DNA of 64,000 nt from the NCBI RefSeq assembly GCF_056712565.1, contig NZ_CM160072.1; one strand, given 5' to 3'. A model generated the notes under the pieces. That model had not been told where the DNA came from. It did no database searches and saw only the letters and a program-made list of their open reading frames with translations. A program made the translations under genes and the position numbers. Shown piece after piece: positions 7,396 through 59,071 of the stretch (position 1 is the stretch's first letter; every line of letters starts with the position of its first letter).

Positions 7396-7436
7396 GAAGA
7401 AATTCTCCATTCTGGTAACTAATTTCAATTTCCCAC

Positions 7437-8198: not shown

Positions 8199-8351
8199 CC
8201 TTCCCTCACAGATGTCAGTACGCCAGCACGCTGTACAGGCTGTACAGCGTGCCTCCCAATCCTGCAGCCCAGAACAGTAGAAATATTTTGGCTCCTACAC
8301 TGTAGCGAGTCCGTATGCGCCGCAGTGGGTGGTAGTAACAACGCTGCTGTG

Positions 8352-9146: not shown

Positions 9147-9172
9147 TCAGACTCGTCCACGCCATTGCTACA

Positions 9173-9465: not shown

Positions 9466-9475
9466 AGGTACTGTT

Positions 9476-12797: not shown

Positions 12798-12810
12798 ATA
12801 AACCTCCTGG

Positions 12811-14283: not shown

Positions 14284-14296
14284 CACGTTTCCTCGG

Positions 14297-14884: not shown

Positions 14885-15012
14885 TTTCGCCACTCCATTA
14901 ATCAGCGTTGTTTATCTATTAAAGCGGTTATTGATTGGACGTTCAATATAAAATGTGTCTTAATTGTTACTAATTTGATTTTAAATGGTAACAATAACAG
15001 TGGGGATACTGG
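14885..15012. promoter_or_regulatory. Divergent betI / betT promoter-operator region
   Basis: 128-bp AT-rich gap between divergently oriented betI and betT; operator not pinpointed. Confidence 0.5.
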
Positions 15013-17046
15013 ATGACAGACCTTTCACACAGCAGGGAAAAGGACAAAATCAATCCGGTGGTGTTTTACACTTCCGCCGGACTGATTTTGTTGTTTTCCC
15101 TGACAACGATCCTGTTTCGCGACTTCTCGGCCCTGTGGATTGGCCGCACGCTGGACTGGGTCTCTAAAACCTTCGGTTGGTACTATCTGCTGGCGGCAAC
15201 GCTCTATATTGTCTTTGTAGTCTGTATCGCTTGTTCGCGTTTTGGTTCGGTGAAGCTCGGGCCAGAACAATCAAAACCGGAATTCAGTCTGCTGAGTTGG
15301 GCGGCGATGCTGTTTGCTGCCGGGATCGGTATCGACCTGATGTTCTTCTCCGTAGCCGAACCGGTAACGCAGTATATGCAGCCGCCGGAAGGCGCGGGAC
15401 AGACGATTGAGGCCGCGCGTCAGGCGATGGTCTGGACGCTGTTTCACTACGGCTTAACCGGCTGGTCGATGTATGCGCTGATGGGCATGGCGCTCGGATA
15501 CTTTAGCTATCGTTATAATTTGCCGCTCACTATCCGCTCGGCGCTGTACCCGATCTTCGGTAAACGGATTAACGGGCCGATAGGTCACTCAGTGGATATT
15601 GCTGCGGTGATCGGCACCATCTTCGGTATTGCCACTACGCTCGGTATCGGTGTGGTACAGCTTAACTATGGCTTGAGCGTGCTGTTTGATATTCCCGATT
15701 CGATGGCGGCGAAAGCGGCACTGATCGCCTTGTCGGTGATCATCGCCACTATCTCGGTGACATCCGGTGTCGATAAGGGCATTCGCGTGTTATCGGAACT
15801 CAACGTTGCGCTGGCGCTGGGATTGATCCTGTTCGTGTTGTTTATGGGCGACACCTCGTTCCTGCTTAATGCACTGGTGCTGAATGTTGGCGACTATGTG
15901 AATCGCTTTATGGGCATGACGCTCAACAGTTTTGCCTTCGACCGTCCGGTTGAGTGGATGAATAACTGGACGCTCTTCTTCTGGGCATGGTGGGTGGCAT
16001 GGTCGCCGTTTGTCGGCTTGTTCCTGGCGCGTATCTCGCGTGGGCGTACCATTCGCCAGTTCGTGCTGGGCACGTTGATTATTCCGTTTACCTTCACGCT
16101 GTTATGGCTCTCGGTATTCGGCAATAGCGCGCTGTATGAAATCATCCACGGCGGCGCTGCATTTGCCGAGGAAGCGATGGTCCATCCGGAGCGCGGCTTC
16201 TACAGCCTGCTGGCGCAGTATCCGGCGTTTACCTTTAGCGCCTCCGTCGCCACCATTACTGGCCTGCTGTTTTATGTGACCTCGGCGGACTCCGGTGCGT
16301 TGGTGCTGGGGAATTTCACCTCGCAGCTTAAAGATATCAACAGCGACGCACCCGGCTGGCTGCGCGTCTTCTGGTCGGTGGCGATTGGCCTGCTGACGCT
16401 AGGCATGCTGATGACCAACGGGATATCCGCGCTGCAAAACACCACGGTGATTATGGGCCTGCCGTTCAGCTTTGTGATCTTCTTCGTGATGGCGGGGTTG
16501 TATAAATCTCTGAAGGTAGAAGATTACCGCCGTGAAAGTGCCAACCGCGATACCGCGCCGCGACCGCTGGGGCTTCAGGATCGCCTGAGCTGGAAAAAAC
16601 GTCTCTCGCGCCTGATGAATTATCCGGGCACGCGTTACACTAAACAGATGATGGAGACGGTCTGTTATCCTGCAATGGAAGAAGTGGCGCAGGAACTGCG
16701 GTTGCGCGGCGCGTACGTGGAGCTAAAAAACCTGCCGCCGGAAGAGGGACAACAGTTGGGGCATCTGGATTTGTTGGTGCATATGGGCGAAGAGCAGAAC
16801 TTTGTCTATCAGATTTGGCCGCAGCAATATTCAGTGCCGGGCTTTACCTACCGCGCACGTAGCGGGAAATCGACCTACTACCGGCTGGAAACCTTCCTGT
16901 TAGAAGGCAGCCAGGGCAACGACCTGATGGACTACAGCAAAGAGCAGGTGATCACCGATATTCTCGACCAGTACGAGCGGCACCTTAACTTTATCCATCT
17001 CCATCGTGAAGCGCCGGGCCATAGCGTGATGTTCCCGGACTCGTGA
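15013..17046 (+). CDS. betT: Choline transporter BetT (BCCT family)
   Basis: 677-aa polytopic membrane protein; divergent from betIBA. Confidence 0.95.
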   Translation: MTDLSHSREKDKINPVVFYTSAGLILLFSLTTILFRDFSALWIGRTLDWVSKTFGWYYLLAATLYIVFVVCIACSRFGSVKLGPEQSKPEFSLLSWAAMLFAAGIGIDLMFFSVAEPVTQYMQPPEGAGQTIEAARQAMVWTLFHYGLTGWSMYALMGMALGYFSYRYNLPLTIRSALYPIFGKRINGPIGHSVDIAAVIGTIFGIATTLGIGVVQLNYGLSVLFDIPDSMAAKAALIALSVIIATISVTSGVDKGIRVLSELNVALALGLILFVLFMGDTSFLLNALVLNVGDYVNRFMGMTLNSFAFDRPVEWMNNWTLFFWAWWVAWSPFVGLFLARISRGRTIRQFVLGTLIIPFTFTLLWLSVFGNSALYEIIHGGAAFAEEAMVHPERGFYSLLAQYPAFTFSASVATITGLLFYVTSADSGALVLGNFTSQLKDINSDAPGWLRVFWSVAIGLLTLGMLMTNGISALQNTTVIMGLPFSFVIFFVMAGLYKSLKVEDYRRESANRDTAPRPLGLQDRLSWKKRLSRLMNYPGTRYTKQMMETVCYPAMEEVAQELRLRGAYVELKNLPPEEGQQLGHLDLLVHMGEEQNFVYQIWPQQYSVPGFTYRARSGKSTYYRLETFLLEGSQGNDLMDYSKEQVITDILDQYERHLNFIHLHREAPGHSVMFPDS

Positions 17047-17060
17047 TTGTTATTGCATAA

Positions 17061-17096
17061 AACCGCGCCATGTCTGCATATGGCGCGGTTTCTCTT
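17061..17096 (+). terminator. Intrinsic terminator candidate after betT
   Basis: 11-bp stem aaccgcgccat / atggcgcggtt with 8-nt loop, followed by a T-rich tract, 15 bp after the betT stop. Confidence 0.6.
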
Positions 17097-17923
17097 ACCT
17101 CTTGATACGTTATATCTGTGTACAGTTAAGCCCTTAGTATCGATTGATGATTGCCAGGCAACAGATAATAAAAAAGAAAAGAACTATTGAAGCCCAAAAC
17201 CTACGTTTGGACTGTTGTGAATGTTCAATAAGCTTAGTCTTATTTAATGTAAATATTGGTGCTAATTTGAAATGACGCTTTATTCATGGGGAACGCGTAG
17301 CGCAAATCAACTAAAATCAATGTAACTGTTTGTTGTTTAAGGTTTAATTGTCTGTGTCTGATATTTTATCGATTGTTTTAAATATTGTTTTTATTGTCAT
17401 TGTTATAATGTTGGCTATCTATTGCTGAATGGATTCAGTCTTAAGAAGCAGGTTGTTAAGGGATAGGCATAGAGTAATGACGTGTATGCATAACCAACAT
17501 CTTTACTCATTATGTCATTGAATGTTGACGCTATGTGTTTATGAGGTTGAGGTATTTTCAGTTGATCTGGATTGTTAAATTCATATAATGCGCCTTTACT
17601 CATGAATGGGCGTCAATACGTAGTGGGAAATTATAAATATCGAAATAGTCCAACTACTTCTTTATTACCAAAAATGAGTATCTGAATTTTAATATTGCAT
17701 TATTGCGTGATTATCTCCTGAGTTTGACTTGTGATTACCTTTTTAAGGTATTTAGCGTAACTGTTTTTGAGCGAGCATCAGAGGTAAAGATAATCTTCTT
17801 GATAGTGATGTGGGATGTTATACGTATGGCATCGCTAATGTTTATGGTTACCCCTTATGTGTGCTCAGGAATCCACAGGTAATCACTCATACTGAACAGC
17901 GATAAAAGATAAAAGGTGTGTTC

Positions 17924-19012
17924 ATGAATTCATGTGATTTTCGTGTTTTTCTGCAAGAGTTCGGTACAACGGTTCATTTGTCATTGCCTGGTAGCGTATC
18001 CGAGAAAGAACGACTGCTACTCAAGCTGCTGATGCAGGGAATGTCTGTAACAGAAATATCACAGTACAGAAATCGCAGTGCAAAGACCATTTCACATCAA
18101 AAGAAACAGCTCTTTGAGAAACTGGGGATTCAGAGCGATATTACTTTCTGGCGGGATATTTTCTTTCAGTACAATCCGGAGATCATATCCGCCACGGGTA
18201 ATAATAGTCACAAATATATTAATGATAATCACTATCACCATATCGTCACGCCTGAAGCCATCAGTCTGGCGTTGGAAAACCACGAGTTTAAACCGTGGAT
18301 CCAACCGGTTTTCTGCGCGCAGACTGGGGTACTGACGGGCTGTGAAGTGCTTGTCCGCTGGGAACATCCACAAACGGGAATGATCCCACCGGATCAGTTT
18401 ATTCCTCTGGCGGAGTCATCCGGTCTTATTGTCATAATGACTCGCCAGCTGATGAAACAGACTGCGGATATTCTGATGCCGGTAAAACATTTGCTGCCGG
18501 ACAATTTCCATATTGGTATCAACGTCTCGGCGGGCTGTTTTTTGGCTGCGGGATTTGAAAAAGAGTGTCTGAACCTGGTTAAGAAATTAGGTAACGATAA
18601 AATCAAGCTGGTTCTTGAGCTGACGGAACGTAATCCTATTCCGGTAACGCCAGAAGCCAGAGCGATATTTGACAGCCTTCATCAGCACAATATTACTTTT
18701 GCGCTGGATGACTTTGGTACGGGTTATGCGACCTATCGTTACTTGCAGGCGTTCCCGGTCGATTTTATTAAAATTGACAAGTCGTTTGTGCAAATGGCGA
18801 GTGTCGATGAAATCTCCGGTCATATTGTGGACAATATTGTCGAACTGGCGCGTAAGCCTGGTCTGAGTATCGTGGCGGAAGGGGTAGAAACCCAGGAGCA
18901 GGCGGATTTAATGATCGGTAAAGGCGTTCACTTTTTACAGGGCTATTTGTACTCTCCGCCAGTACCGGGTAATAAATTTATCTCTGAATGGGTAATGAAA
19001 GCAGGTGGTTGA
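17924..19012 (+). CDS. pdeL: c-di-GMP phosphodiesterase PdeL (YahA): LuxR-type HTH plus EAL domain
   Basis: N-terminal LuxR HTH and C-terminal EAL-domain region; long AT-rich upstream region as at K-12 pdeL. Start taken at MNSCDF. Confidence 0.9.
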   Translation: MNSCDFRVFLQEFGTTVHLSLPGSVSEKERLLLKLLMQGMSVTEISQYRNRSAKTISHQKKQLFEKLGIQSDITFWRDIFFQYNPEIISATGNNSHKYINDNHYHHIVTPEAISLALENHEFKPWIQPVFCAQTGVLTGCEVLVRWEHPQTGMIPPDQFIPLAESSGLIVIMTRQLMKQTADILMPVKHLLPDNFHIGINVSAGCFLAAGFEKECLNLVKKLGNDKIKLVLELTERNPIPVTPEARAIFDSLHQHNITFALDDFGTGYATYRYLQAFPVDFIKIDKSFVQMASVDEISGHIVDNIVELARKPGLSIVAEGVETQEQADLMIGKGVHFLQGYLYSPPVPGNKFISEWVMKAGG

Positions 19013-19053
19013 TGTAAACCGCTATTCACAGCGCATCGGGAGGTTGGCAGCGA

Positions 19054-19986
19054 TTAATTCTCCCGATGCAGTAAATCCTGATAGATCCCCGTTAATATGC
19101 CATTTGGCGCAAATTGTTTTTTAATCCACTGCGTCACCTGACCGGTGGCAGAGTGCTGGGTTGCGAGTAACATGCGTGAATCCTGGCGCGGGTTATGGAT
19201 TTGTCGGGTAACCAGCAAGGATTGCGCCATCGCCTCACGGACCATGTAATCCGGCAAAAAACCAATTCCTTCACCTAAAATCTGGCACTGACATTTGGTG
19301 TTGAAATCTGGCACCAGAATTGACTCCTGCCCATGCAGCAACCAGCCCACTTTTTTATTAATCGTATGCGCGGTGTCCTCCACCATGATATTAGGGTAGA
19401 GACGCAGCTGGCTTTCGGCGATCGGCTCCGGCACAAAGGCTAATGGGTGATCCGGGGCGATGGCAAAAGCCCAGCGAATCGCGCCAATCTCCGTGTAATC
19501 AATGCCGCCGCCGTCCAGCAGCGTGTCGGGCGCGCCGATGGCGATATTTGCCTGATTATTAATAATCGCATCCCAGACGCCGTTATACACTTCGGTCGTC
19601 ACGGTAATCTGGCAGGTAGGAAACTGCTTTTTCAGCACCTGTAATAAGCGCGCGGTGTGTTTGGGCGTATAAAGCAGCTGATTAATACAAATGCGCACAC
19701 GCGCTTCTATGCCCTGCGAAATAGTATCGATACTGCGTTTAATGGCGTGAAAATCATTCAGCAGGTCGGTAGCTTTGCGGAAAAAATAACGCCCGGACTC
19801 CGTTAACTCAATGCTGCGGGTACTGCGAGTGAACAGCACCACATCCAGCCCTGTTTCCATACGTTTAATGGTGTAGCTAATGGCGGAAGTGGTTAAACCC
19901 AACTCTTCTGCGGCTTTACTGAAGCTGCCAAAACGCGCAGCGGTAGTAAATGCCAACAGATTCTCTTCGGTAAAAATTGAGTTCAT
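19054..19986 (-). CDS. yahB: LysR-family transcriptional regulator YahB
   Basis: 310 aa with N-terminal LysR-type HTH. Confidence 0.85.
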   Translation of the reverse strand: MNSIFTEENLLAFTTAARFGSFSKAAEELGLTTSAISYTIKRMETGLDVVLFTRSTRSIELTESGRYFFRKATDLLNDFHAIKRSIDTISQGIEARVRICINQLLYTPKHTARLLQVLKKQFPTCQITVTTEVYNGVWDAIINNQANIAIGAPDTLLDGGGIDYTEIGAIRWAFAIAPDHPLAFVPEPIAESQLRLYPNIMVEDTAHTINKKVGWLLHGQESILVPDFNTKCQCQILGEGIGFLPDYMVREAMAQSLLVTRQIHNPRQDSRMLLATQHSATGQVTQWIKKQFAPNGILTGIYQDLLHREN

Positions 19987-20077
19987 CGACTCGCTCCCGC
20001 CATTTTCGATTCTGAATTTCTCCAGCCATGACTGTAGAGGTATCCATTAAAGATGGATAATCATTTTTGAATAACTT

Positions 20078-20575
20078 TTAATACCCGTCGCTTTTGGTCG
20101 TCGCTTCGCTTAATTTTTGTCCGCCGTATTCTGAAATTATCCCCACGCAGTTACCCGCCAGAAAACCCAGTAATGTCACCGTCCAGTTCATCCCGCTGGC
20201 AAAAAATAGCGTCATGCCGAGAAAGCCTCCGGGAATAAAAGACAGTAACCAGAAACGCCCTTGCCAGACCACCACCGCCGAGAAGGGTACAGTCGTAATC
20301 ACGCTCGCCCAGAACGCGGACAGTCCACTCACCGGGGCCAGCCAACCGGCAGCCAGCGCGGCGAAAAACGCCCACACCATCCCGGAATAATTAACCGCCA
20401 GGCTTTTGATAAACCCCGATTTACCGCCGCCTGCGGCATAAAAACTGCAAAAGGCGACGAAGCCAATGGTTCCTAATAATTCCCATCCCTGAGAGAGCCC
20501 GACATGTGAAGACACTAACTGCCAAAGCCCTGCACAAATACCGACGGTGACACCCGTTGCCGTGAGTCCGTTCAT
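20078..20575 (-). CDS. yahC: Inner-membrane protein YahC
   Basis: 165-aa strongly hydrophobic ORF in the K-12 position. Confidence 0.8.
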   Translation of the reverse strand: MNGLTATGVTVGICAGLWQLVSSHVGLSQGWELLGTIGFVAFCSFYAAGGGKSGFIKSLAVNYSGMVWAFFAALAAGWLAPVSGLSAFWASVITTVPFSAVVVWQGRFWLLSFIPGGFLGMTLFFASGMNWTVTLLGFLAGNCVGIISEYGGQKLSEATTKSDGY

Positions 20576-20832
20576 CTTGTTCCCCTCTGGTTAGACATGG
20601 ACGAAAGCTACTCTTACATGTGCAGACTATAGAGAAATAAAACCTGATTGAGTGAAAGGGTATCGGGTCAAAGAAACAAATATTGCACTACCGCACACGG
20701 CGAAAAGATTGTTGAACATCATTCAACAAAAAGGCGAAATACGGCGAATTAAATTTAAGCGGGTTCTTTTATCAGATTATCGTTGCTATTCTCAATTCAT
20801 CGAAAACAGCCACAAAAACCAGGTGAATGTGA

Positions 20833-21438
20833 ATGACTATAAAAAATCTACCTGCAGACTATTTATTGGCTGCGCAACAGGGGGATATCGATAAAGTAAA
20901 AATCTGCCTTGCGCTGGGTGTCGATATTAATACCTGCGATCGTCAGGGGAAAACGGCAATTACGCTGGCAAGTTTATATCAGCAATATGCTTGCGTTCAG
21001 GCATTAATTGACGCCGGAGCGAATATTAATAAACAAGATCATACCTGTTTAAATCCTTTTTTAATTAGCTGTCTGAACGATGATTTAACGCTACTACGAA
21101 TTATTTTACCGGCTAAACCCGATCTTAATTGCGTAACCCGTTTTGGCGGTGTCGGCCTGACGCCTGCCTGTGAAAAAGGCCATTTAAGTATTGTAAAAGA
21201 GCTTTTGGCGCATACGGAGATTAACGTTAACCAGACCAACCATGTTGGCTGGACGCCGCTACTGGAAGCGATTGTGCTTAATGATGGCGGGATTAAACAG
21301 CAGGCGATTGTCCAGTTATTACTGGAACACGGTGCCAGCCCGCATCTGACGGATAAATATGGCAAAACACCGCTGGAACTGGCGCGAGAACGGGGCTTTG
21401 AAGAGATTGCGCAGTTACTGATTGCCGCAGGCGCATAA
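20833..21438 (+). CDS. yahD: Ankyrin-repeat protein YahD
   Basis: 201 aa with tandem ankyrin-like repeats. Confidence 0.85.
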   Translation: MTIKNLPADYLLAAQQGDIDKVKICLALGVDINTCDRQGKTAITLASLYQQYACVQALIDAGANINKQDHTCLNPFLISCLNDDLTLLRIILPAKPDLNCVTRFGGVGLTPACEKGHLSIVKELLAHTEINVNQTNHVGWTPLLEAIVLNDGGIKQQAIVQLLLEHGASPHLTDKYGKTPLELARERGFEEIAQLLIAAGA

Positions 21439-21477
21439 ACCGGGAGGCTTGCTATCAACACACCAGAAAGACGGTGT

Positions 21478-22341
21478 GTGTGGGCGCTAACTGCGGATGC
21501 TGATTTTCTGGCGCAGCGGGGGCAAGGACAGGTTGAACAGGTCTTTGCCAGAGCGGTAAATATCGCACTCCCGGCTCGCCAGCAGTTGCTGACGCTGCTT
21601 TGTGAAGAGTACGACAATGCGCCAAACAGTTGTCGGTTGGCACTCACTCACTTTAATGGTCTGTTCCGGCATGGTGATAAGGTTCAGTTTGACGATCAAG
21701 GCATTACGGTTGGTCAACATCTTCATATAGAGATGAGTCATTGCCAGCGTTGGCTGTCCCCAACCTTGCAAATGACCGCTCTGAATTTTCACCTTATCGC
21801 CTGGCAACAGTGGCACGACATTATTCATCAGCACCTGGGGGAAAATGAAACCCTGTTTAATTATCGCGGCGATAATCCGTTTTATCAGGCGTTAAATAAA
21901 GAACTACATATTAAACGACGGGCAGTTATTCAGGCCGTAAACGATAAACAAAATATCGCCGTAGCGGTCGCCAGTATGATGGGCTTAGGGATTGGCCTTA
22001 CGCCATCAGCCGACGATTATTTAACAGGTCTGGCGCTTATTTTATTTCTTCCCGGACATCCGGCGGAAAAATACAAAGAGGAATTTTATCTCGGTCTGCA
22101 ACGCGGCAGAAATAATACCACGTTATTAAGTGCCATCACGCTGGAAGCCGCATTACAACAACGCTGCCGGGAAAATATTCATCGTTTTATTCACAACATT
22201 ATTTATGACATCCCTGGGAACGCAACTCAGGCAATAGAAAAAATTAAACATATTGGCTCCAGTTCCGGCTGCGACATGCTGTATGGCATGGCCGATGGTT
22301 GTGCGCTGAGTCAAACCTACGGAGGGAATTATGTCAGTTAA
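21478..22341 (+). CDS. yahE: DUF2877-family protein YahE
   Basis: 287-aa ORF; stop overlaps the yahF start. Confidence 0.8.
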   Translation: MWALTADADFLAQRGQGQVEQVFARAVNIALPARQQLLTLLCEEYDNAPNSCRLALTHFNGLFRHGDKVQFDDQGITVGQHLHIEMSHCQRWLSPTLQMTALNFHLIAWQQWHDIIHQHLGENETLFNYRGDNPFYQALNKELHIKRRAVIQAVNDKQNIAVAVASMMGLGIGLTPSADDYLTGLALILFLPGHPAEKYKEEFYLGLQRGRNNTTLLSAITLEAALQQRCRENIHRFIHNIIYDIPGNATQAIEKIKHIGSSSGCDMLYGMADGCALSQTYGGNYVS

Positions 22342-23878
22342 AATAGTCATTAAACCGAATACCTATTTTGATTCTGTCTCGCTGATGTCTATCTCCACGC
22401 GTGCAAATAAACTCGACGGCGTCGAGCAGGCATTTGTGGCGATGGCGACCGAAATGAACAAAGGCGTGTTGAAGAATTTAGGACTGCTGACGCCGGAGCT
22501 GGAGCAGGCGAAAAACGGCGACCTGATGATTGTCATCAATGGTAAATCGGGTGTGGACAACGAGCAGTTGCTGGCGGAGATTGAAGAACTGTTCAACACC
22601 AAAGCGCAAAGCGGCTCGCACGAGGCGCGTTACGCCACTATTGCCAGCGCCAAAAAGCATATCCCGGAAAGTAACCTGGCAGTGATTTCGGTCAACGGTC
22701 TGTTTGCCGCTCGCGAAGCGCGTCAGGCGCTGCAAAATGACCTCAACGTGATGCTGTTTTCCGATAATGTCTCAGTTGAAGATGAACTGGCGCTCAAACA
22801 GTTGGCCCATGAAAAAGGGCTGCTGATGATGGGGCCAGACTGCGGCACGGCGATTATCAACGGCGCGGCGCTCTGCTTTGGTAACGCCGTGCGTCGCGGC
22901 AACATCGGTATTGTTGGCGCATCTGGCACCGGCAGCCAGGAATTGAGCGTCCGTATCCATGAATTTGGTGGCGGCGTTTCACAACTGATCGGCACCGGCG
23001 GGCGCGACCTGAGCGAGAAAATCGGTGGCCTGATGATGCTCGATGCCATCGGGATGCTGGAAAACGATCCGCAAACTGAAATCATTGTGCTTATCTCCAA
23101 ACCGCCTGCGCCTGCGGTGGCCCGCAAAGTGCTGGAACGCGCACGCGCCTGCCGCAAGCCAGTGGTGGCCTGCTTCCTCGGTCGTGGCGAAACGCCAGTG
23201 GATGAGCAGGGGCTACAGTTTGCTCGCGGCAGCAAAGAGGCGGCATTGAAAGCGGTGATGCTCTCCGGCGTGAAACAAGAACATCTCGACCTGCATACGC
23301 TTAACCAGCCGTTGATTGCGGATGTGCGTGCGCGTCTGCAACCGCAGCAGAAATACATTCGTGGTCTGTTCTGCGGCGGTACGCTGTGTGACGAAACCCT
23401 GTTCGCGGTGATGGAAAAACATGGCGATGTCTACAGCAATATCCAGCCCGATCCTGAATTCCGCCTGCAAGATATCAACCGCAGCATCAAACATACCTTC
23501 CTCGACTTTGGCGATGATGACTTCACCAACGGCAAGCCGCATCCAATGATTGACCCGACCAACCGTATCAGCCGCGTGATCGAAGAAGCGCGCGATCCAG
23601 AAGTGGCGGTGATCGTGATGGATTTTGTTCTCGGATTTGGATCGCATGAAGATCCGGTCGGTTCCACCATCGAGGCGATCAAAGAAGCGAAAGCGATCGC
23701 CGCTGCCGAAGGACGCGAGTTGATCATTCTCGCCTATGTGCTGGGCACCGATCTCGATACGCCATCATTAGAACAACAAAGCCAGATGCTGCTTGATGCC
23801 GGAGTGATTCTGGCGAGCAGCAGCACCAATACCGGATTGCTGGCGCGTGAATTTATCTGCAAAGGGGAGGAAGCCTGA
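22331..23878 (+). CDS. yahF: FdrA-like acyl-CoA synthetase / succinyl-CoA ligase alpha-like protein YahF
   Basis: 515 aa with a CoA-binding-like region; start overlaps yahE, stop overlaps the yahG start (ATGA). Confidence 0.85.
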   Translation: MSVKIVIKPNTYFDSVSLMSISTRANKLDGVEQAFVAMATEMNKGVLKNLGLLTPELEQAKNGDLMIVINGKSGVDNEQLLAEIEELFNTKAQSGSHEARYATIASAKKHIPESNLAVISVNGLFAAREARQALQNDLNVMLFSDNVSVEDELALKQLAHEKGLLMMGPDCGTAIINGAALCFGNAVRRGNIGIVGASGTGSQELSVRIHEFGGGVSQLIGTGGRDLSEKIGGLMMLDAIGMLENDPQTEIIVLISKPPAPAVARKVLERARACRKPVVACFLGRGETPVDEQGLQFARGSKEAALKAVMLSGVKQEHLDLHTLNQPLIADVRARLQPQQKYIRGLFCGGTLCDETLFAVMEKHGDVYSNIQPDPEFRLQDINRSIKHTFLDFGDDDFTNGKPHPMIDPTNRISRVIEEARDPEVAVIVMDFVLGFGSHEDPVGSTIEAIKEAKAIAAAEGRELIILAYVLGTDLDTPSLEQQSQMLLDAGVILASSSTNTGLLAREFICKGEEA

Positions 23879-28089: not shown

Positions 28090-28500
28090 ATGACCATAAA
28101 AGAAAAAATCTCACAAAAATATCCCCATGCTTCCTTTTGTACTTTTGGCGATTCAGCAGCGTTGGCCGATCACCTCGCAACGTTGATTGCGACTGGTGTT
28201 AAAACAGCTTCCTGTGGTTCGCTGGCGGGATGTATTGAAGACAACGCATTTCCGATGATTGGGGAGTATAAGATTGTAGAAAATAGCCGTGGTGAGCCTG
28301 TCTGTGTTATCAGAGTAATTGGCCTGCATTTACTGCGCTTTTCTGATGTCACCGCGGAGCTTGCCCGTAAGGAAGGTGAAGGTGACCTCAGTCTTGAATA
28401 TTGGCGTAATGAACACCGTCGTTTTTTCCAGGCAGAAGGATGCTATTCACCCGAAATGGACGTTATCTTTGAAGAATATGCCCTTATTGACGTTGTGTAG
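28090..28500 (+). CDS. Hypothetical protein; weak, unverified resemblance to ASCH-type small proteins. Start uncertain (TTG at 28060 or ATG at 28090)
   Basis: 136-146 aa ORF in an AT-rich stretch upstream of the ABC transporter; not in the K-12 gene order as I recall it. Confidence 0.45.
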   Translation: MTIKEKISQKYPHASFCTFGDSAALADHLATLIATGVKTASCGSLAGCIEDNAFPMIGEYKIVENSRGEPVCVIRVIGLHLLRFSDVTAELARKEGEGDLSLEYWRNEHRRFFQAEGCYSPEMDVIFEEYALIDVV

Positions 28501-28750
28501 ATAACTATTTTTCTACGCGAAATAAGCTCACAAACATAAAGTATCGCTAATTTTGTTTATTTTGCTATTTTTTACGTGATGATTGTCACACTTATTGTTA
28601 CTGCCCGTTTTGTCCATATTTATAACCAAATTTTTAATAGCTGCCTGAAATAGGGCTGTTTATTCTGCATAAAAATATTCGAAAATTCTTATTCTCTCCA
28701 GCGCGCTAATTTGGGCGAACACTTCCTGACTACCCTGCAATGAGGCTGAA

Positions 28751-29737
28751 ATGATGAATAAACGTTTTGTTATCAATATGGTGTCTTCGCTGTTATTAGG
28801 CGCTGCGCTAATTTCTGCGCCGCTCCAGGCCGCGGAAAAAGTCGTGGTGAATATCTCTAAAGTCGATGGTATGCCGTGGTTTAATCGCATGGGCGAAGGT
28901 GTGGTTGAGGCGGGTAAAGCCTTTGGTGTTAATGCGTCACAGGTGGGGCCTTCAAGTACTGATGCTCCACAACAAGTTAAAATTATTGAGGATTTAATCG
29001 CCCGTAAGGTTAATGCAATTACAATTGTGCCAAACGATGCCAACGTGCTGGAACCGGTATTCAAAAAAGCGCGAGATGCCGGAATTGTGGTTCTGACCAA
29101 CGAATCCCCCGGTCAGCCAAGTGCTAACTGGGATATCGAAATCATTGATAACGAAAAATTTGCCGCTGAATATGTTGAGCATATGGCGAAACGCATGGGT
29201 GGCAAGGGCGGCTATGTGATTTACGTGGGTAGTTTGACCGTGCCGCAGCATAACTTATGGGCTGACTTGCTGGTGAAATACCAGAAAGAGCATTACCCGG
29301 ATATGCATGAAGTTACCCGCCGCATGCCGGTTGCCGAGAGTGTGGATGACTCACGTCGTACTACACTGGACCTGATGAAAACCTATCCTGACTTGAAAGC
29401 GGTTGTCTCCTTTGGTTCAAACGGTCCGATTGGCGCGGGACGTGCAGTGAAAGAGAAACGGGCGAAAAATAAAGTCGCAGTCTATGGCATGATGATCCCT
29501 TCACAGGCGGCATCACTGATTAAAAGTGGTGATATCACCGAAGGGATTACTTACGATCCGGCCTCTGCAGGTTACGCACTCGCGGCCGTCGCCAGCACGT
29601 TGCTGAAGGGTGAAGAGATCAAACCTGGATTAGAAATGCAGAATCTGGGTAAGGCCGACGTAGATATGGATAAGCGAATTATCCGTTTCCATAAGGTATT
29701 ACTGGTCAACAAAGACAATATCGACTCACTTTATTAA
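28751..29737 (+). CDS. Periplasmic sugar-binding protein of a CUT2-family ABC transporter, LsrB-like
   Basis: 328 aa with signal peptide; C-terminus KVLLVNKDNIDSLY resembles the LsrB C-terminus as I recall it; GAGG motif upstream. Confidence 0.8.
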   Translation: MMNKRFVINMVSSLLLGAALISAPLQAAEKVVVNISKVDGMPWFNRMGEGVVEAGKAFGVNASQVGPSSTDAPQQVKIIEDLIARKVNAITIVPNDANVLEPVFKKARDAGIVVLTNESPGQPSANWDIEIIDNEKFAAEYVEHMAKRMGGKGGYVIYVGSLTVPQHNLWADLLVKYQKEHYPDMHEVTRRMPVAESVDDSRRTTLDLMKTYPDLKAVVSFGSNGPIGAGRAVKEKRAKNKVAVYGMMIPSQAASLIKSGDITEGITYDPASAGYALAAVASTLLKGEEIKPGLEMQNLGKADVDMDKRIIRFHKVLLVNKDNIDSLY

Positions 29738-29785
29738 TCCATTTCTTCGGGGCGAAAGCCCCGATTCTTATTGCCAGGGGATGTT

Positions 29786-31270
29786 ATGGAAACCTTCCTT
29801 TCCCTTCGTCATATCAACAAAACGTTTCATGCCACGCGAGCGCTGCGCGATGTTTCTCTCGACTTTATGTCGGGTGAAGTGCACTGTCTTGCCGGGCAAA
29901 ACGGCTGTGGTAAATCGACGTTGATTAAAATTATGTCCGGTGTTTATCGCCCGGATGAGGGAGCGGAAATTACGCTTGGTGGGAAAAACTGGTCAAAGCT
30001 GACACCCGCCGCTTCGGTGGCGCAGGGGATTCAGGTGATTTATCAGGACCTCTCTTTATTTCCTAACCTGAGTGTCTGGGAGAATATCGCCGTGAATCAC
30101 TATCACCACGGTCTGTTTGTTAACCGACGTCGTCTGCGTGAGGTGGCGCAGGCGGCAATGACCAGTATTAACGTCACATTGCCACTGGATACGCTCGTTT
30201 CTGAGCTTTCAATTGCCCGCTGTCAGCTGGTGGCAATTTGCCGTGCACTGGCGCAGGACGCACGGTTGATCGTGATGGATGAACCAACCGCTTCGCTGAC
30301 CCATCAGGAAGTGCAAGGGTTATTACAGGTGGTGCATCAATTGCGGGAACGCGGGATCTGCGTGGTCTTCGTCAGTCATCGTCTGGAAGAAGTGATGGAA
30401 GTTTCCGACCGTATTTCAGTGCTGAAAGATGGTGAGCTGGTCGGGACCTTTCCGGCCGCAGAGATGACCACAAAACAACTCGGTTTTCTGATGACCGGCC
30501 AGGAGTTTGAATATCAGGTGCGAGAGTTGTGGCAGGGAAAATCCAGCACCCCGGTGCTGGAGGTGCGTAATTTAAGTCGTCATGGGGAATATCTAAATAT
30601 TAACTTGCGGGTGGAAGCGGGCGAAGTGGTATCGATTGTTGGCCTGCTTGGTGCGGGGCGCACGGAATTATGTCTGAGTCTGTTTGGTATGACCCGACCG
30701 GATGCTGGCGAGATCCTCATCAACGGCCAGCTGGTTACACTGCATAGTAACCAGGACGCCATCCGCCACGGTATTGGTTATGTTTCGGAAGATCGCATGT
30801 CGCGCGGTTTGGTGATGGCGCAATCTATTGAAGACAACATCATTAGCACTGTTTTTCACAAGGTAAAAGATCGCTTCGGCTTTCTGAGTGAAGCTAAAGT
30901 GTGTGACCTGGTGGACAGGCTAATCAAGGCATTGACCATCAAAGTCTCTGATCCTCATCTCCCGGTGAATACGCTTTCTGGTGGTAACGCGCAGCGAGTA
31001 TCGATCGCCAAATGGCTGGCGATTGGGCCACGACTGTTGATTCTCGATAGCCCGACAGTCGGTGTTGATATCGCCAACAAAGCAGGAATATACGGCATTA
31101 TCAGCGATCTGGCGGCTCATGGCATTGCGGTATTGATGATCTGCGATGAAATTGAAGAAGCGTGGTATCAAAGCCACCGGATTTTGGTAATGCAAAAAGG
31201 TCAGATCACCCATAGCTTCCTGCCTGACAGCAGTTCTCAGGCCAGGATTGCGGAGGTGGTAAATGGCTGA
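29786..31270 (+). CDS. ABC transporter ATP-binding protein with duplicated ATPase domains (RbsA/LsrA-like)
   Basis: Two nucleotide-binding domains (GQNGCGKST; GLLGAGRTE); start at METFLSL with AGGGGA upstream. Confidence 0.85.
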   Translation: METFLSLRHINKTFHATRALRDVSLDFMSGEVHCLAGQNGCGKSTLIKIMSGVYRPDEGAEITLGGKNWSKLTPAASVAQGIQVIYQDLSLFPNLSVWENIAVNHYHHGLFVNRRRLREVAQAAMTSINVTLPLDTLVSELSIARCQLVAICRALAQDARLIVMDEPTASLTHQEVQGLLQVVHQLRERGICVVFVSHRLEEVMEVSDRISVLKDGELVGTFPAAEMTTKQLGFLMTGQEFEYQVRELWQGKSSTPVLEVRNLSRHGEYLNINLRVEAGEVVSIVGLLGAGRTELCLSLFGMTRPDAGEILINGQLVTLHSNQDAIRHGIGYVSEDRMSRGLVMAQSIEDNIISTVFHKVKDRFGFLSEAKVCDLVDRLIKALTIKVSDPHLPVNTLSGGNAQRVSIAKWLAIGPRLLILDSPTVGVDIANKAGIYGIISDLAAHGIAVLMICDEIEEAWYQSHRILVMQKGQITHSFLPDSSSQARIAEVVNG

Positions 31271-32234
31271 ACTGAAAAAACGCCATGAATTCTGGCTGGC
31301 ATTACTGATTGTGGTGCTGTTTGTTGGCCTTGCCTGGCGCAGCGACGAGTTTCTGACATTCGGTAATTTGTACGATCTCGCCAATAACTATGCCATGTTG
31401 ACTATTCTCGCCTGTGGTTTGTTTGTGGTGTTAATTTCCGGTGGGATTGATATTTCGTTTCCGGCAATGACCATCATTGCGCAATACGGCATGGTGCTGC
31501 TGCTGCAAAAAATTGGTGGCAACTTTGCTGTCGCGTTTGCCCTGGCGGGCGGCATCGGCATTTTACTTGGCTTAATTAACGCCTTACTGGTTAATCGCCT
31601 ACGGGTGCCTTCTATCATCATCACTATCTCGACGCTGAATATTTTTTATGGCCTGCTGTTATGGTTGAGTAAAGGTGTGTGGCTGTACGACTTTCCGCCG
31701 TGGTTTGAGCAGGGGGTAATGTTGTTCAAGTACACCGATGCTGATGGCTATGACTATGGCCTTGGTCTGCCGCTGATCGCCATGATTACGGTGGTGCTGC
31801 TGACAGCGTTTATCATGAATTTCACCAGTGTAGGGCGCAAAATTTATGCCCTTGGCGGGAACCGCGAATCAGCCAGTCGCATCGGCTTTAGTGTGCTGAA
31901 ACTGCAACTTTTCGTCTATGGCTATATGGGATTGATGTCTGGTGCTGCGGGTGTAGTGCAGTCGTGGACGGTGATGACTGTCGCCCCCGATTCTCTTCTG
32001 GGTTATGAGCTGACAGTACTGGCTGCGGTGGTGCTTGGCGGCACTAGTTTGCTCGGCGGGCGCGGCACGTTAACCGGTACTTTGCTCGGCGTGGTGTTGT
32101 TGGCAGTGATGCAAAACGGGCTAAATTTATTGGGAGTCTCGTCTTACTGGCAAACATTGATCACCGGCATCATCATCGTTGCCAGCATTAGCGCCACGGC
32201 GTGGAGTCAGCATCAGAACCGGAGTCTGCTATGA
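31263..32234 (+). CDS. ABC transporter permease (RbsC/LsrC-like)
   Basis: 323-aa polytopic membrane protein; start overlaps the ATPase stop. Confidence 0.85.
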   Translation: MAELKKRHEFWLALLIVVLFVGLAWRSDEFLTFGNLYDLANNYAMLTILACGLFVVLISGGIDISFPAMTIIAQYGMVLLLQKIGGNFAVAFALAGGIGILLGLINALLVNRLRVPSIIITISTLNIFYGLLLWLSKGVWLYDFPPWFEQGVMLFKYTDADGYDYGLGLPLIAMITVVLLTAFIMNFTSVGRKIYALGGNRESASRIGFSVLKLQLFVYGYMGLMSGAAGVVQSWTVMTVAPDSLLGYELTVLAAVVLGGTSLLGGRGTLTGTLLGVVLLAVMQNGLNLLGVSSYWQTLITGIIIVASISATAWSQHQNRSLL

Positions 32235-33187
32235 AAAAATCGTGGCGTAATAACGTTGAGTTTTACTTGATCGGCCTGCTGGTGCTAACTGTTGCCGCCT
32301 TCAGCATTACTATGCCGGAGATTTTCTGGTCGATAAGTAATTTCCAGTCCGTCGCTTCGCAAATGCCCGTGCTGGGCATTCTGGCGTTGGCTATGGCGGT
32401 GACCATGCTTTGCGGTGGCATTAACTTGTCAATTATAGCCACTGCTAACGCCTGTTCACTGGTGATGGCGTGGGTGGCGACTCAGTATCCACCAGGTATT
32501 GCTACGGTTGTCGCTACGCTGCTGGCGGGCGCTGGCGCGGCGGTGATAATCGGTTTATGTAACGGCGTATTGATTGCTGGTATTCGAGTGTCGCCAATTC
32601 TTGCAACACTTGGGATGATGACGTTGCTCAAAGGGGTTAATATTCTGGTGACAGGCGGTAGCGCCATTGCCAATTATCCCTCATGGGTGCTGTGGTTGAA
32701 TCATGCACAGTGGTTCGGTATTCCGCTACCGATGTGGTTGTTTACCGCAGTGGCGCTGGGGCTGTGGATATTGCTGGAGAAAACGCCGCTCGGTAAATCC
32801 ATTTATCTGATTGGTTCTAACGAACGAGCAACACTTTACTCCGGTATTAACACTCGTCGGGTGCTGATATGGGTGTATGTCATTTCCGCCTTGCTTTGTG
32901 CGGTAGCGGCATTTTTGATGATGTCGAAACTCAACTCGGCTAAGGCCTCTTATGGCGAATCTTACTTGCTGGTGTCAATCCTCGCGGCAGTACTCGGCGG
33001 GGTTAATCCGGACGGCGGCAGCGGGCGGATAATTGGTATGGTGCTGGCGCTGTTTCTTCTGCAAATTATTGAAAGCGGCTTCAATATTCTCGGTATAAGC
33101 CCCTACCTGACGATGGCCTTATGGGGAACGTTGCTGCTCTGTTTCATTCAGGCTCGCGGCATGTTAGGGCTGGATCGGGTGGTTTAA
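32231..33187 (+). CDS. ABC transporter permease (RbsC/LsrD-like)
   Basis: About 318-aa membrane protein; ATGA overlap with the upstream permease. Confidence 0.85.
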   Translation: MKKSWRNNVEFYLIGLLVLTVAAFSITMPEIFWSISNFQSVASQMPVLGILALAMAVTMLCGGINLSIIATANACSLVMAWVATQYPPGIATVVATLLAGAGAAVIIGLCNGVLIAGIRVSPILATLGMMTLLKGVNILVTGGSAIANYPSWVLWLNHAQWFGIPLPMWLFTAVALGLWILLEKTPLGKSIYLIGSNERATLYSGINTRRVLIWVYVISALLCAVAAFLMMSKLNSAKASYGESYLLVSILAAVLGGVNPDGGSGRIIGMVLALFLLQIIESGFNILGISPYLTMALWGTLLLCFIQARGMLGLDRVV

Positions 33188-33273
33188 ATATTGGCTATAT
33201 TCAATGGACGCGTTTTGCCGCGATGACATATCAGGCATCGCCAAATACACATAGCTAATCAGGAGTAAACACA

Positions 33274-46598: not shown

Positions 46599-46627
46599 TC
46601 GGCTGGGTTACCGCGAGCGTAGTTTAT

Positions 46628-46705
46628 GCCGGATGCGGCGTGAACACCTTATCCGGCCTACGTAGATCTCTGAAATTGTAGGCCTGATAAGCGGAGCGCA
46701 TCAGG
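46628..46705. repeat. REP elements in the codA-lacA gap
   Basis: gccggatgcggcgtgaacaccttatccggcctac and inverted tgtaggcctgataagcggagcgcatcaggc. Confidence 0.8.
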
Positions 46706-46718
46706 CAATTTTGCTTAT

Positions 46719-51884: not shown

Positions 51885-51905
51885 AATTGTGTTGCGCTCA
51901 CTGCC
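51885..51905 (-). promoter_or_regulatory. lac auxiliary operator O3
   Basis: ggcagtgagcgcaacacaatt overlapping the lacI 3' end. Confidence 0.7.
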
Positions 51906-52980
51906 CGCTTTCCAGTCGGGAAACTTGTCGTGCCAGCTGCATTAATGAATCGGCCAACGCGCGGGGAGAGGCGGTTTGCGTATTGGGCGGAAGGGTGGTT
52001 TTTCTTTTCACCAGTGAGACGGGCAACAGCTGATTGCCCTTCACCGCCTGGCCCTGAGAGAGTTGCAGCAAGCGGTCCACGCTGGTTTGCCCCAGCAGGC
52101 GAAAATCCTGTTTGATGGTGGTTAACGGCGGGATATAACACGAGCTGTCTTCGGTATCGTCGTATCCCACTACCGAGATATCCGCACCAACGCGCAGCCC
52201 GGACTCGGTAATGGCGCGCATTGCGCCCAGCGCCATCTGATCGTTGGCAACCAGCATCGCAGTGGGAACGATGCCCTCATTTAGCATTTGCATGGTTTGT
52301 TGAAAACCGGACATGGCACTCCAGTCGCCTTCCCGTTCCGCTATCGGCTGAATTTGATTGCGTGTGAGATATTTATGCCAGCCTGCCAGACGCAGACGCG
52401 CCGAGACAGAACTTAATGGGCCTGCTAACAGCGCGATTTGCTGGTGACCCAATGCGACCAGGTGCTCCACGCCCAGTCGCGTACCGTCTTCATGGGAGAA
52501 AATAATACTGTTGATGGGAGTCTGGTCAGAGACATCAAGAAATAACGCCGGAACATTAGCGCAGGCAGCTTCCACAGCAATGGCATCCTGGTCATCCAGC
52601 GGATAGTTAATGATCAGCCCACTGACGCGTTGCGCGAGAAGATTGTGCACCGCCGCTTTACAGGCTTCGACGCCGCTTCGTTCTACCATCGACACCACCA
52701 CGCTGGCACCCAGTTGATCGGCGCGAGATTTTATCGCCGCAACAATTTGCGACGGCGCGTGCAGGGCCAGACTGGAGGTGGCAACGCCAATCAGCAACGA
52801 CTGTTTGCCCGCCAGTTGTTGTGCCACGCGGTTGGGAATGTAATTCAGCTCCGCCATCGCCGCTTCCACTTTTTCCCGCGTTTTCGCAGAAACGTGGCAG
52901 GCCTGGTTCACCACGCGGGAAACGGTCTGATAAGAGACACCGGCATACTCTGCGACATCGTATAGCGTTACTGGTTTCAC
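51898..52980 (-). CDS. lacI: Lactose repressor LacI
   Basis: 360 aa from the classic GTG start (GTGAAACCAGTAACG, MKPVTLYDVAEYAGVSYQTVSRVV). Confidence 0.97.
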   Translation of the reverse strand: MKPVTLYDVAEYAGVSYQTVSRVVNQACHVSAKTREKVEAAMAELNYIPNRVAQQLAGKQSLLIGVATSSLALHAPSQIVAAIKSRADQLGASVVVSMVERSGVEACKAAVHNLLAQRVSGLIINYPLDDQDAIAVEAACANVPALFLDVSDQTPINSIIFSHEDGTRLGVEHLVALGHQQIALLAGPLSSVSARLRLAGWHKYLTRNQIQPIAEREGDWSAMSGFQQTMQMLNEGIVPTAMLVANDQMALGAMRAITESGLRVGADISVVGYDDTEDSSCYIPPLTTIKQDFRLLGQTSVDRLLQLSQGQAVKGNQLLPVSLVKRKTTLPPNTQTASPRALADSLMQLARQVSRLESGQ

Positions 52981-53181
52981 ATTCACCACCCTGAATTGAC
53001 TCTCTTCCGGGCGCTATCATGCCATACCGCGAAAGGTTTTGCGCCATTCGGCGAGGCTGACGCCGAAGTGAGATTTAAAATGCTGACGCCAGGTCACAGG
53101 TGAGAGAAAACCCACGCCAATACACCTACGGCGTTTACAGGTATACTCGCTAAAAATTATTCAGCGGGTTTGGAAACAAAG

Positions 53182-53721
53182 ATGGCAAAACTTACCTTAC
53201 AAGAGCAGTTGCTCAAAGCGGGACTAGTCACCAGCAAAAAAGCGGCGAAGGTGGAGAGAACGGCGAAAAAATCGCGCGTTCAGGCGCGTGAAGCTCGGGC
53301 TGCGGTAGAAGAAAATAAAAAGGCACAGCTTGAGCGTGATAAACAGCTTAGCGAACAGCAAAAACAAGCGGCGTTGGCGAAAGAATATAAAGCCCAGGTG
53401 AAGCAGCTCATTGAAATGAACCGAATCACCATTGCCAATGGCGATATTGGTTTTAACTTCACTGACGGCAATCTGATTAAGAAGATTTTTGTCGATAAGC
53501 TCACACAGGCGCAGTTGATTAATGGTCGTCTGGCGATTGCTCGCTTGTTGGTCGATAACAATAGCGAAGGTGAATACGCCATTATTCCCGCCAGCGTTGC
53601 CGATAAAATTGCTCAGCGTGATGCCAGCAGTATTGTGTTGCACAGCGCGCTCAGCGCCGAAGAGCAGGATGAAGACGATCCGTATGCCGACTTCAAAGTG
53701 CCTGATGATTTGATGTGGTAA
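53182..53721 (+). CDS. yaiL: DUF2058-family protein YaiL
   Basis: 179 aa from MAKLTLQEQLLKAG; lysine- and alanine-rich N-terminal half. Confidence 0.85.
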   Translation: MAKLTLQEQLLKAGLVTSKKAAKVERTAKKSRVQAREARAAVEENKKAQLERDKQLSEQQKQAALAKEYKAQVKQLIEMNRITIANGDIGFNFTDGNLIKKIFVDKLTQAQLINGRLAIARLLVDNNSEGEYAIIPASVADKIAQRDASSIVLHSALSAEEQDEDDPYADFKVPDDLMW

Positions 53722-53946
<225 letters not shown>

Positions 53947-57255: not shown

Positions 57256-57948
57256 TTAATCTCCTGTACGGATAAGTTCTTGTCGGAGTGAATAAGTTCC
57301 GGTAGGTAAATTACGTTCTACAATCACGCGCGGGCCAAGTTGCGTGTTCGGGGAAATAATTCGCCCAGGCAAAATAATAACTTGTACGCCAAGGCGTGAA
57401 CGCTGCCCGATATAACAACCTAATTTATCGCATCCGGTAGCGATAATTCCATCTGGAGTTCGAACAGACACGGGCTGTTCATCCAGACGATGATTACTGG
57501 TTCGTACTTGTGCGCCCAAATATGCCTGGTTTGCAACTACCGAGTCGGCAATAAAGCATTGCGGACCAATCGTGGCTTCCGCTTCAATAACCGCATTTTT
57601 AATTTCGGTGGCAAAACCAATTCTTACGCCATTGCTGATTATTGTGCCAGGACGAATAAACGCATAATTACCTATTAGGCAGTTTGCGCCAATCACTACC
57701 GGACCCTGAATAACGGCACCGTGGCAAATACGGGTATTCGCGCCGATAACAACCTCACCGGCACTTTCATCAATAATCACCTGGTCTGCAATCTGAATAT
57801 TTTTCTCTTTAACATTAAGCTTCAGATAGTTTTTCAGTTCCTGTGACAGAAGGGTGGGAATAAGCGGTTGACACTTCCACCAGTGCGGAATAGCGGGTGG
57901 GTTTGTCGCGCTGAGGTTCGCGTCCAGTAAAAAAGGCAATAAGTCCAT
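57256..57948 (-). CDS. yaiX: Hexapeptide-repeat acyl/acetyltransferase YaiX, apparently intact; start uncertain
   Basis: Left-handed beta-helix repeats; any ATG start (57948 or 57966) overlaps the yaiP 3' end by more than 130 bp. Confidence 0.65.
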   Translation of the reverse strand: MDLLPFLLDANLSATNPPAIPHWWKCQPLIPTLLSQELKNYLKLNVKEKNIQIADQVIIDESAGEVVIGANTRICHGAVIQGPVVIGANCLIGNYAFIRPGTIISNGVRIGFATEIKNAVIEAEATIGPQCFIADSVVANQAYLGAQVRTSNHRLDEQPVSVRTPDGIIATGCDKLGCYIGQRSRLGVQVIILPGRIISPNTQLGPRVIVERNLPTGTYSLRQELIRTGD

Positions 57949-59071
57949 AAATAATCCAGATGGCATAAGCTAATAATACATACACAACGGAAAGCGGTGC
58001 TAAAGGCACCAACAACCAGCAACGATGAAACCAGGCGCTAAATGCACCAATAACACAAACTACGCCGACCCAGATAAGCGGGAACATTGCCAACACCACA
58101 CCATGTGGCCCGGTGGTGATGAATTCATTAAACCAGGTAGTGAGATAAATACCAACGCCATAAAGCACAACCAACAGCATAGGAAATATACTGAAGATAC
58201 CGAAGCGGCTAAATAAAAGTCTTTTATGCAGGCGCATACAGACCGCGTAGCCCACAATCCAACGCCGCCAGCGGCGCCACTCCTCACGCGGACTGTTACA
58301 TTCCTGTGGGTATACGATGCAGCGATTCGCCTGCCGAATACGGTAGCCGTTTGCCACCAATGTCCAGGTGAGATCAAGGTCTTCGACTTTAGTACGATCC
58401 GAGAAACCGAACTTACGCAATACATCAGTACGGAACATCCCGCAGGCACCGCTGATGATAAACGGTGCGCCGCCCAGAAGCTGCTGTAGCGTGCGCTTCA
58501 TAACAATCATCGGCAACTTTACGGTCGCGCGGATGTGTAGCTGCTGTAGCGTGCGCTTCATAACAATCATCGGCAACTTTACGGTCGCGCGGATGTGTGG
58601 TAACAGACCCGCGCCTTTCAACGCAGTAGAGGGAATGCCGCCTACGGCATCAGCGCCACGCTCAATTTCCGCCAGCATATAGCCCATTCCGTCTTGATCG
58701 GGCGGAACATAGGTGTCGGCATCACTTAAAAAAACCTGATCGCAGGTGGCGTAATTGAGGCCATTCATCAGCGCACCACCTTTACCGGTATTTTTTTGCG
58801 TGACGGCAACAAAGCGGTCGCCCCATTTGCGTTTGACTTCCGCCATGACCGCTTCGGTATTGTCCATGGAGCCGTCGTTAACGCAAATTACCCGGCAAAA
58901 ATAAGGGTTACGCAGCAGATTATCCAGTGACTGCGCCAGACACGGGCCTTCGTTATAAGCAGGTATAATGGCGTCAATACAGCCTTTCTTTTGGCTGGGC
59001 TTACGCCTTAACGTACTCAGAAACCATAGCAATATTGCTACGGCCATACATATAAAGATCCAGGTTTTCAT
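57815..59071 (-). CDS. yaiP: Family-2 glycosyltransferase YaiP, carrying an in-frame 20-aa tandem duplication
   Basis: 418 aa (398 expected without the duplication); glycosyltransferase-like N-terminus, C-terminal membrane segments. Confidence 0.85.
   Translation of the reverse strand: MKTWIFICMAVAILLWFLSTLRRKPSQKKGCIDAIIPAYNEGPCLAQSLDNLLRNPYFCRVICVNDGSMDNTEAVMAEVKRKWGDRFVAVTQKNTGKGGALMNGLNYATCDQVFLSDADTYVPPDQDGMGYMLAEIERGADAVGGIPSTALKGAGLLPHIRATVKLPMIVMKRTLQQLHIRATVKLPMIVMKRTLQQLLGGAPFIISGACGMFRTDVLRKFGFSDRTKVEDLDLTWTLVANGYRIRQANRCIVYPQECNSPREEWRRWRRWIVGYAVCMRLHKRLLFSRFGIFSIFPMLLVVLYGVGIYLTTWFNEFITTGPHGVVLAMFPLIWVGVVCVIGAFSAWFHRCWLLVPLAPLSVVYVLLAYAIWIIYGLIAFFTGREPQRDKPTRYSALVEVSTAYSHPSVTGTEKLSEA
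58481..58600. repeat. Tandem duplication of a 60-bp unit (units differ at 1 position) inside yaiP
   Basis: ctgctgtagcgtgcgcttcataacaatcatcggcaactttacggtcgcgcggatgtgt occurs twice consecutively. Confidence 0.9.

Follow-up and report, generated by a model that had tools for sequence, protein, structure and literature searches.

A published study reports that the mhp genes are absent from Escherichia coli phylogroup B2, except in ST131, ST452 and rare sequence types, and proposes that the loss took place in the B2 ancestor (PMC11728103, ISME J 2024). The same text sets out many independent deletions as an alternative scenario, describes the genomic position of mhp as conserved, and relates the view of Diaz et al. 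2001 that the species acquired these genes horizontally and that BIME sequences flank them. Likewise, an analysis of the pangenomes of ten B2 sequence types found mhpA in ST131 alone (PMC9836092, Microb Genom 2022).

A second system that bears on this locus is O-island 19 (OI-19) of EHEC O157:H7 EDL933, which includes z0442 (ovrA) and z0443. The product of ovrA is an AraC-type activator of ler and the LEE in EHEC (PMC10877973). Newer RefSeq annotations give the intact gene the name ovrA and the description 'OI-19-encoded virulence regulator', and in EDL933 this gene directly adjoins lacI. OI-19 is usually described as specific to O157 relative to K-12.

Here we describe the interval between lacI and yaiL in a stretch of 64,000 nucleotides (hereafter the window), where an earlier note made from the sequence had claimed that the mhp cluster is missing. 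The finding correctly recovers a lineage marker that had already been published, and it leaves the current understanding of E. coli biology unchanged. The small additions to the published picture are the breakpoints at base level, a remnant of ovrA beside lacI, a junction common to 486 genomes, and the polarity provided by a Citrobacter outgroup.

The lacI-yaiL interval and its source strain

A 601-bp probe that spans the interval matches the E. coli DSM 30083 (= ATCC 11775) chromosome at 100% identity, and the window as a whole is 99.98% identical to that chromosome (NZ_CP033092.2) over 64 kb. Nine substitutions, two 1-nt deletions in T runs and a tandem duplication of 60 bp set the two apart, with the eleven small differences located at positions 732, 7970, 9249, 10392, 12469, 17702, 26317, 35126, 45809, 46049 and 62903. 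We conclude that the window represents the type strain in another assembly, or a near-clone of it, and that it is not the exact NZ_CP033092.2 record. DSM 30083 is a urine isolate obtained in 1941 from a patient with cystitis; its serovar is O1:K1:H7 and its phylogroup is B2 (PMC4334874), and it is through near-identity to this strain that the window is classed as B2. The suspicion in the earlier note of a non-K-12, possibly extraintestinal pathogenic background is supported by this match to a B2 cystitis strain, and by a junction shared with classic B2 strains (see below).

In K-12 DH1 the gene order is lacI-mhpR-mhpABCDFE-mhpT-yaiL, as the earlier note had stated. In the window, the starts of lacI and yaiL are 201 bp apart, according to the list of open reading frames and to the RefSeq annotation mapped from the near-identical ATCC 11775 record. 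These same two sources place the intact lac repressor gene lacI at 51898-52980 on the minus strand, with a GTG start at 52978-52980. Its leader and promoter region (52981-53050, minus strand) is identical at 70 of 70 positions to both K-12 DH1 and EDL933. On the plus strand, 65 bp of native yaiL upstream sequence (53117-53181), which are 100% identical in K-12 and ST131, precede an intact yaiL gene (53182-53721). This gene encodes a DUF2058 protein of 179 aa (Pfam DUF2058, E = 7e-59; RefSeq WP_001096705.1) that is the same protein in K-12.

When the window is compared by megablast to the EDL933 locus, only the flanks align. Specifically, no mhp genes are present in the lacI-yaiL interval or in the rest of the 64-kb window, and no part of the window matches EDL933 locus positions 12336-22818. 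The claim that the cluster is missing between lacI and yaiL is thus borne out. The further statement that the lacI promoter region is followed by yaiL within about 200 bp holds for the distance, but not for direct abutment, since 99 bp derived from ovrA intervene.

This ovrA 3' remnant (53017-53115, minus strand) comprises codons 286-317 and the stop codon, as indicated by RefSeq annotation and by a translation match to the EDL933 protein. Its minus-strand translation, VGFLSPVTWRQHFKSHFGVSLAEWRKTFRGMA followed by the stop, corresponds in frame to the C-terminus of the 317-aa EDL933 protein, and RefSeq already lists it as the pseudogene EAS44_RS18875 ('GlxA family transcriptional regulator, incomplete, missing N-terminus'). 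Pfam assigns a DJ-1/PfpI domain to aa 6-171 and an HTH_18 domain to aa 233-311 of the intact EDL933 protein. The window remnant, in which aa 286-317 alone are kept, has no DJ-1/PfpI domain, and a complete HTH_18/AraC DNA-binding domain is not present in it because the sequence begins at aa 286, inside that domain. In addition, Leu takes the place of the conserved Pro in the GVSPAEW motif. Because the remnant begins within HTH_18 and is devoid of DJ-1/PfpI, it cannot encode a regulator and is a pseudogene only.

The lacI promoter hexamers that we take to be those of Calos 1978, a -10 element CATGAT at 53016-53021 and a -35 element GCGCAA at 53039-53044, sit in the 3' coding end of ovrA. A strict consensus scan for promoters and terminators over positions 52900-53300 returned no promoter, a miss that is expected because the lacI promoter is weak.

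Breakpoints and direction of change

Alignment with EDL933 places the deletion junction at 53115-53117 (no strand). Homology on the left stops at window position 53115, which corresponds to EDL933 locus position 12335, and homology on the right restarts at window position 53117, which corresponds to locus position 22819. Relative to EDL933, the window therefore lacks locus positions 12336-22818, or 10,483 bp. The lost content consists of ovrA codons 1-285, the MBL-fold hydrolase gene z0443, mhpR, mhpABCDFE, mhpT, and 36 bp past the mhpT stop codon, such that in mhp-positive genomes the first retained base of the yaiL upstream segment is found 37 bp past the mhpT stop. The deletion leaves lacI and its promoter untouched, as well as yaiL and its 65 proximal upstream bases. 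The G at 53116 matches neither flank of the deletion, and may have been added as filler or substituted later. In one genome this junction base is a C, which yields a seamless join with a 2-nt CC overlap. Microhomology at the junction thus amounts to 0-2 nt.

No direct repeats that pair the two endpoints were found in the intact EDL933 locus, and no mobile-element features, such as bordering IS ends, a tRNA or an integrase, are annotated in the loci compared. Excision of an island by an integrase or an IS element is not supported, given the lack of flanking direct repeats and mobile-element features and the minimal microhomology. Deletion of mhp through REP/BIME sequences is likewise not supported, because the left end is in the coding sequence of ovrA and the right end comes after a short hairpin past mhpT. 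An Rfam scan of positions 52700-53900 gave no REP/naRNA4 match in 52981-53181. The same class of element is found between yaiL and fghA (53718-53878), where there are two REP-type elements of the Rfam family naRNA4 (RF02564), one of which exceeds the gathering score at 81 bits. Nowhere else in the locus do strains diverge as much as in this intergenic region (86-93% identity).

We consider it very probable that the interval is the scar of one ancient 10.5-kb deletion that was later inherited by most of phylogroup B2. The ancestor would have had the order lacZ-lacI-ovrA-(MBL hydrolase)-mhpR-mhpABCDFE-mhpT-yaiL. An illegitimate join, involving neither a repeat nor a mobile element, would then have linked ovrA codon 285/286 to a site that lies 36 bp beyond mhpT. 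The regulator and the hydrolase would have been lost in this way, along with the transporter and all of the catabolic cluster for 3-(3-hydroxyphenyl)propionate / 3-hydroxycinnamate. The resulting deletion allele would have passed to most of B2, and the type-strain lineage would be among its heirs.

Which of the known arrangements is the oldest? A degenerate pattern for the HTH region of ovrA was scanned over a collection of reference genomes with one genome per species, and it matched eight Citrobacter species. No Escherichia record was returned, although the pattern matches window positions 53060-53091; the scan may be incomplete, or the E. coli representative may be of the K-12 type. In all eight Citrobacter loci, tblastn places an intact OvrA homologue between the hydrolase and LacI, and the OvrA homologues are 317 aa in length with about 77-80% amino-acid identity. 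LacZ comes after LacI wherever the retrieved locus reaches that far, and in the three loci long enough to show it, mhpR (with mhpA/mhpB) is found at the opposite end. For C. sedlakii the order of open reading frames is mhpFDCBA, mhpR, MBL, the 317-aa OvrA, LacI and LacZ. In one Citrobacter locus taken as an example, the arrangement spans locus positions 3584-13431 and its order is as in E. coli O157:H7. Because Citrobacter shares the full order, the full arrangement is the older one, and the OI-19 genes would, by the evidence of gene order, be the ancestral neighbors of lacI.

The K-12 locus is not the ancestral reference state. In the K-12-type allele, EDL933 locus positions 12271-14102 (1,832 bp) are replaced by the 8-bp filler ATGGTGTC, and this deletion takes the MBL hydrolase gene and all of ovrA except its last 34 bp. 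The junction that ST131 and K-12 have in common reads CATTCG, ATGGTGTC and A.CGTAAATG in succession. Because this K-12-type junction is devoid of the 65 bp of ovrA that are kept in the window, it cannot be the precursor of the window allele. The K-12 deletion is a second, independent event. The scar also sets the direction of change, in that an ancestor that carried ovrA gave rise by deletion to both the K-12 and the B2 states. The -35 and -10 hexamers of lacI, which presumably fall in the last ovrA codons, were spared by both deletions.

Distribution of the junction and rival explanations

An 80-bp junction probe was compared to 5426 complete E. coli genomes, and only full-length matches were considered. 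The junction is found in 486 of these genomes, with exactly one copy in each, and in 395 cases it is identical to that of the window. The mhpA-mhpB genes are present in 4900 of the 5426 complete genomes, whereas intact ovrA plus the hydrolase gene are present in 436. The 486 genomes with the junction and the 4900 with mhpAB sum to 5386 of 5426, which is consistent with mutually exclusive sets. Carriers include UTI89, NU14, ABU 83972, Nissle 1917, ATCC 25922, F11, APEC O18, IMT5155 and EPEC E2348/69, and the probe is 100% identical in UTI89, ABU 83972, ATCC 25922, Nissle 1917, F11 and E2348/69. We take the named carriers to be B2 strains, and presumably they include reference strains of ST73, ST95, ST127 and EPEC-1; the assignment of the 486 carriers to B2 is based on these named strains and on the literature.

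One carrier, Z1323CEC0015 (NZ_CP148423.1, assembly GCF_037565025.1), departs from this pattern. It has the mhp-less junction and also a cyn-less junction between codA and lacA, at retrieved-locus positions 7977-8039 and 1525-1586, respectively, and its variant bases at the equivalents of 53051, 53116 and 53127 are A, C and C. Its flanks are not B2-like, with a lacZ gene that is 96.8% identical to that of the window. Rather, they are 100% identical over 6.4 kb and 1.5 kb to those of PS1Thumoskin9, a cyn-positive, mhp-positive genome with a K-12-type junction, and the two genomes differ only in the 62-64 bp that are unique to the deletion alleles. This pattern cannot result from a new deletion, and it could hardly result from ordinary homologous recombination with a B2 donor. 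Z1323CEC0015 is not explained by simple single inheritance; it may be an artefact of reference-guided assembly or polishing, which is our leading suspicion, or a very unusual recombinant.

Several other explanations for the interval must be weighed. The earlier note had itself named, beforehand, a misassembly in which mhp is really present and the assembly collapsed at this site. The chance of this is practically nil, and the reading can be set aside as excluded, because the same junction occurs once per genome in 486 complete genomes that were assembled independently, the finished ATCC 11775 chromosome reads the same as the window at this site, and there are no repeats able to cause a collapse. 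It is also highly improbable that B2 never had mhp, and that mhp and OI-19 were instead inserted beside lacI in other lineages. The account of mhp as horizontally acquired and BIME-flanked, which the relevant part of PMC11728103 attributes to Diaz et al. 2001, would agree with such a primary absence. However, an in-frame, 32-codon C-terminal fragment of ovrA that is cut inside HTH_18 is not expected in an insertion target and is therefore read as a deletion remnant rather than a primary state, and Citrobacter species share the lacZ-lacI-ovrA-MBL-mhpR-mhpAB order.

Slightly less remote, though still improbable, is the possibility that the deletion recurred at the same breakpoints because they form a hotspot, or that the deletion allele spread by homologous recombination and not by descent. 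The junction of Z1323CEC0015, on a background identical over 6.4 kb to a strain that is positive for mhp and cyn and has the K-12-type junction, speaks for such an event, but this is the only case of its kind among the 486 junction genomes. Moreover, a K-12-type locus that is missing the 65 bp of ovrA could not have formed the junction de novo in Z1323CEC0015, the right-hand homology available there is at most 10 bp, and the switches between donor-like and recipient-like sequence fall exactly at the edges of heterology in both the cyn and mhp loci. Likewise, 0-2 nt of microhomology offers no basis for a hotspot. We therefore favor a single origin of the deletion, which is most simply one inherited event.

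If most of B2 inherited this scar, then how does ST131 come to carry mhp? An O25:H4 ST131 genome has B2-like lac genes that are 99.0-99.5% identical to those of the window, its fghA/frmA genes are B2-like, and its cyn-less codA-lacA junction is the same as in the window. Its mhp cluster lies behind a junction that is structurally identical to that of K-12, and the mhp genes exhibit 96.8-99.3% identity to both K-12 and EDL933. Because the K-12-type junction cannot precede the B2 scar, and the reverse change needs a gain of 9 kb, allelic replacement is simplest. Specifically, the simplest link between the two states is that ST131 regained mhp via homologous recombination with a K-12-type allele.

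Neither a recombination donor nor a tract boundary in ST131 is assignable from per-gene identities. The genome FHI_NMBU_03 was considered as the partner of ST131 in a before/after pair, but its flanking genes are only 98.2-99.4% identical and it is too distant; the two genomes have one promoter SNP and the YaiL protein in common. A chimeric probe did not find a B2-like genome with the full ancestral state, and its best match, EC1515, is not B2-like. The ST131 junction fits the scenario favored in the discussion of mhp history in PMC11728103, namely loss in the B2 ancestor and later re-acquisitions, and argues against the many independent deletions given there as the alternative.

Together, these observations lead us to a reading that we consider likely as a whole. 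OI-19 would not be an acquisition of O157 but an ancestral segment that was lost twice, once in the K-12 type and once in the B2 type, and the lacI promoter would be formed by the last codons of ovrA. All mhp-negative B2 genomes would derive from one deletion, and ST131 would have regained mhp by homologous replacement, which would settle the choice between the two scenarios that PMC11728103 leaves undecided.

Neighboring features and comparison with known systems

The earlier note had also pointed to missing cyn genes, an islet and an extra transporter as signs of a non-K-12 lineage, and each of these remarks holds. The cyn operon (cynR, cynT, cynS, cynX) is absent from the codA-lacA intergenic region at 46599-46718. 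In EDL933, REP/BIME copies stand on both sides of this operon. The window has a single hybrid copy, similar on its left to the codA-side copy and on its right to the lacA-side copy, which suggests that cyn was lost when the flanking repeats recombined. Direct joining of codA to lacA is seen in 985 of the 5426 complete genomes, or about twice as many as carry the mhp scar, and these include ST131. The islet, which is annotated in the ATCC 11775 record, is located between ykgH and betA (~5098-10078) and carries ipbA (fimX/hbiF tyrosine invertase), hyxR, hyxA and hyxB (autotransporter). Upstream of the lac region, a four-gene ABC transporter of the sugar / autoinducer-2 type and an ASCH-domain gene occupy ~28090-33190 between yahJ and yahK, an arrangement that we take to be outside the K-12 gene order.

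A further feature of the window was observed in yaiP (ORF 57815-59071, minus strand), where a perfect in-frame 60-bp tandem duplication (58479-58598) adds 20 aa to the YaiP glycosyltransferase. Neither the ATCC 11775 record nor any of the 12 best-matching complete genomes has the duplication, and each of these 12 spans 261 bp where the window has 321 bp. The duplication may be a polymorphism private to this genome or a difference between assemblies.

The compounds 3-hydroxyphenylpropionate and 3-hydroxycinnamate are gut products of plant phenolics. Based on the role of mhp as presented in the corresponding part of PMC11728103, the strain is predicted not to grow on 3-(3-hydroxyphenyl)propionate or 3-hydroxycinnamate. 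The junction itself provides a clean lineage marker: as judged from named strains and the literature, a single 80-bp sequence splits most B2 genomes of the ExPEC type from ST131 and from all other phylogroups.

As noted above, the mhp-negative genotype of B2 has been described previously (PMC11728103, PMC9836092), and the window corresponds to it in locus, gene content and lineage. The difference is that these papers, in the portions that treat mhp, score gene presence and phylogeny rather than the junction. The cyn absence in the same window is similar in being another lineage-typical loss in B2 that flanks the lac operon, and differs from the mhp scar in having a hybrid REP at its junction and a wider occurrence in the population.

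Similarly, the 99 bp beside lacI match the 3' end of ovrA in O-island 19 of EDL933, whose intact z0442 and z0443 are represented in the window only by 32 codons, with no DJ-1/PfpI domain and a partial HTH. The K-12-type lacI-mhpR junction is also a deletion derivative with its left breakpoint in the 3' end of ovrA and with the lacI promoter spared. In contrast to the window allele, its left breakpoint is displaced by 65 bp and the whole mhp cluster is kept.
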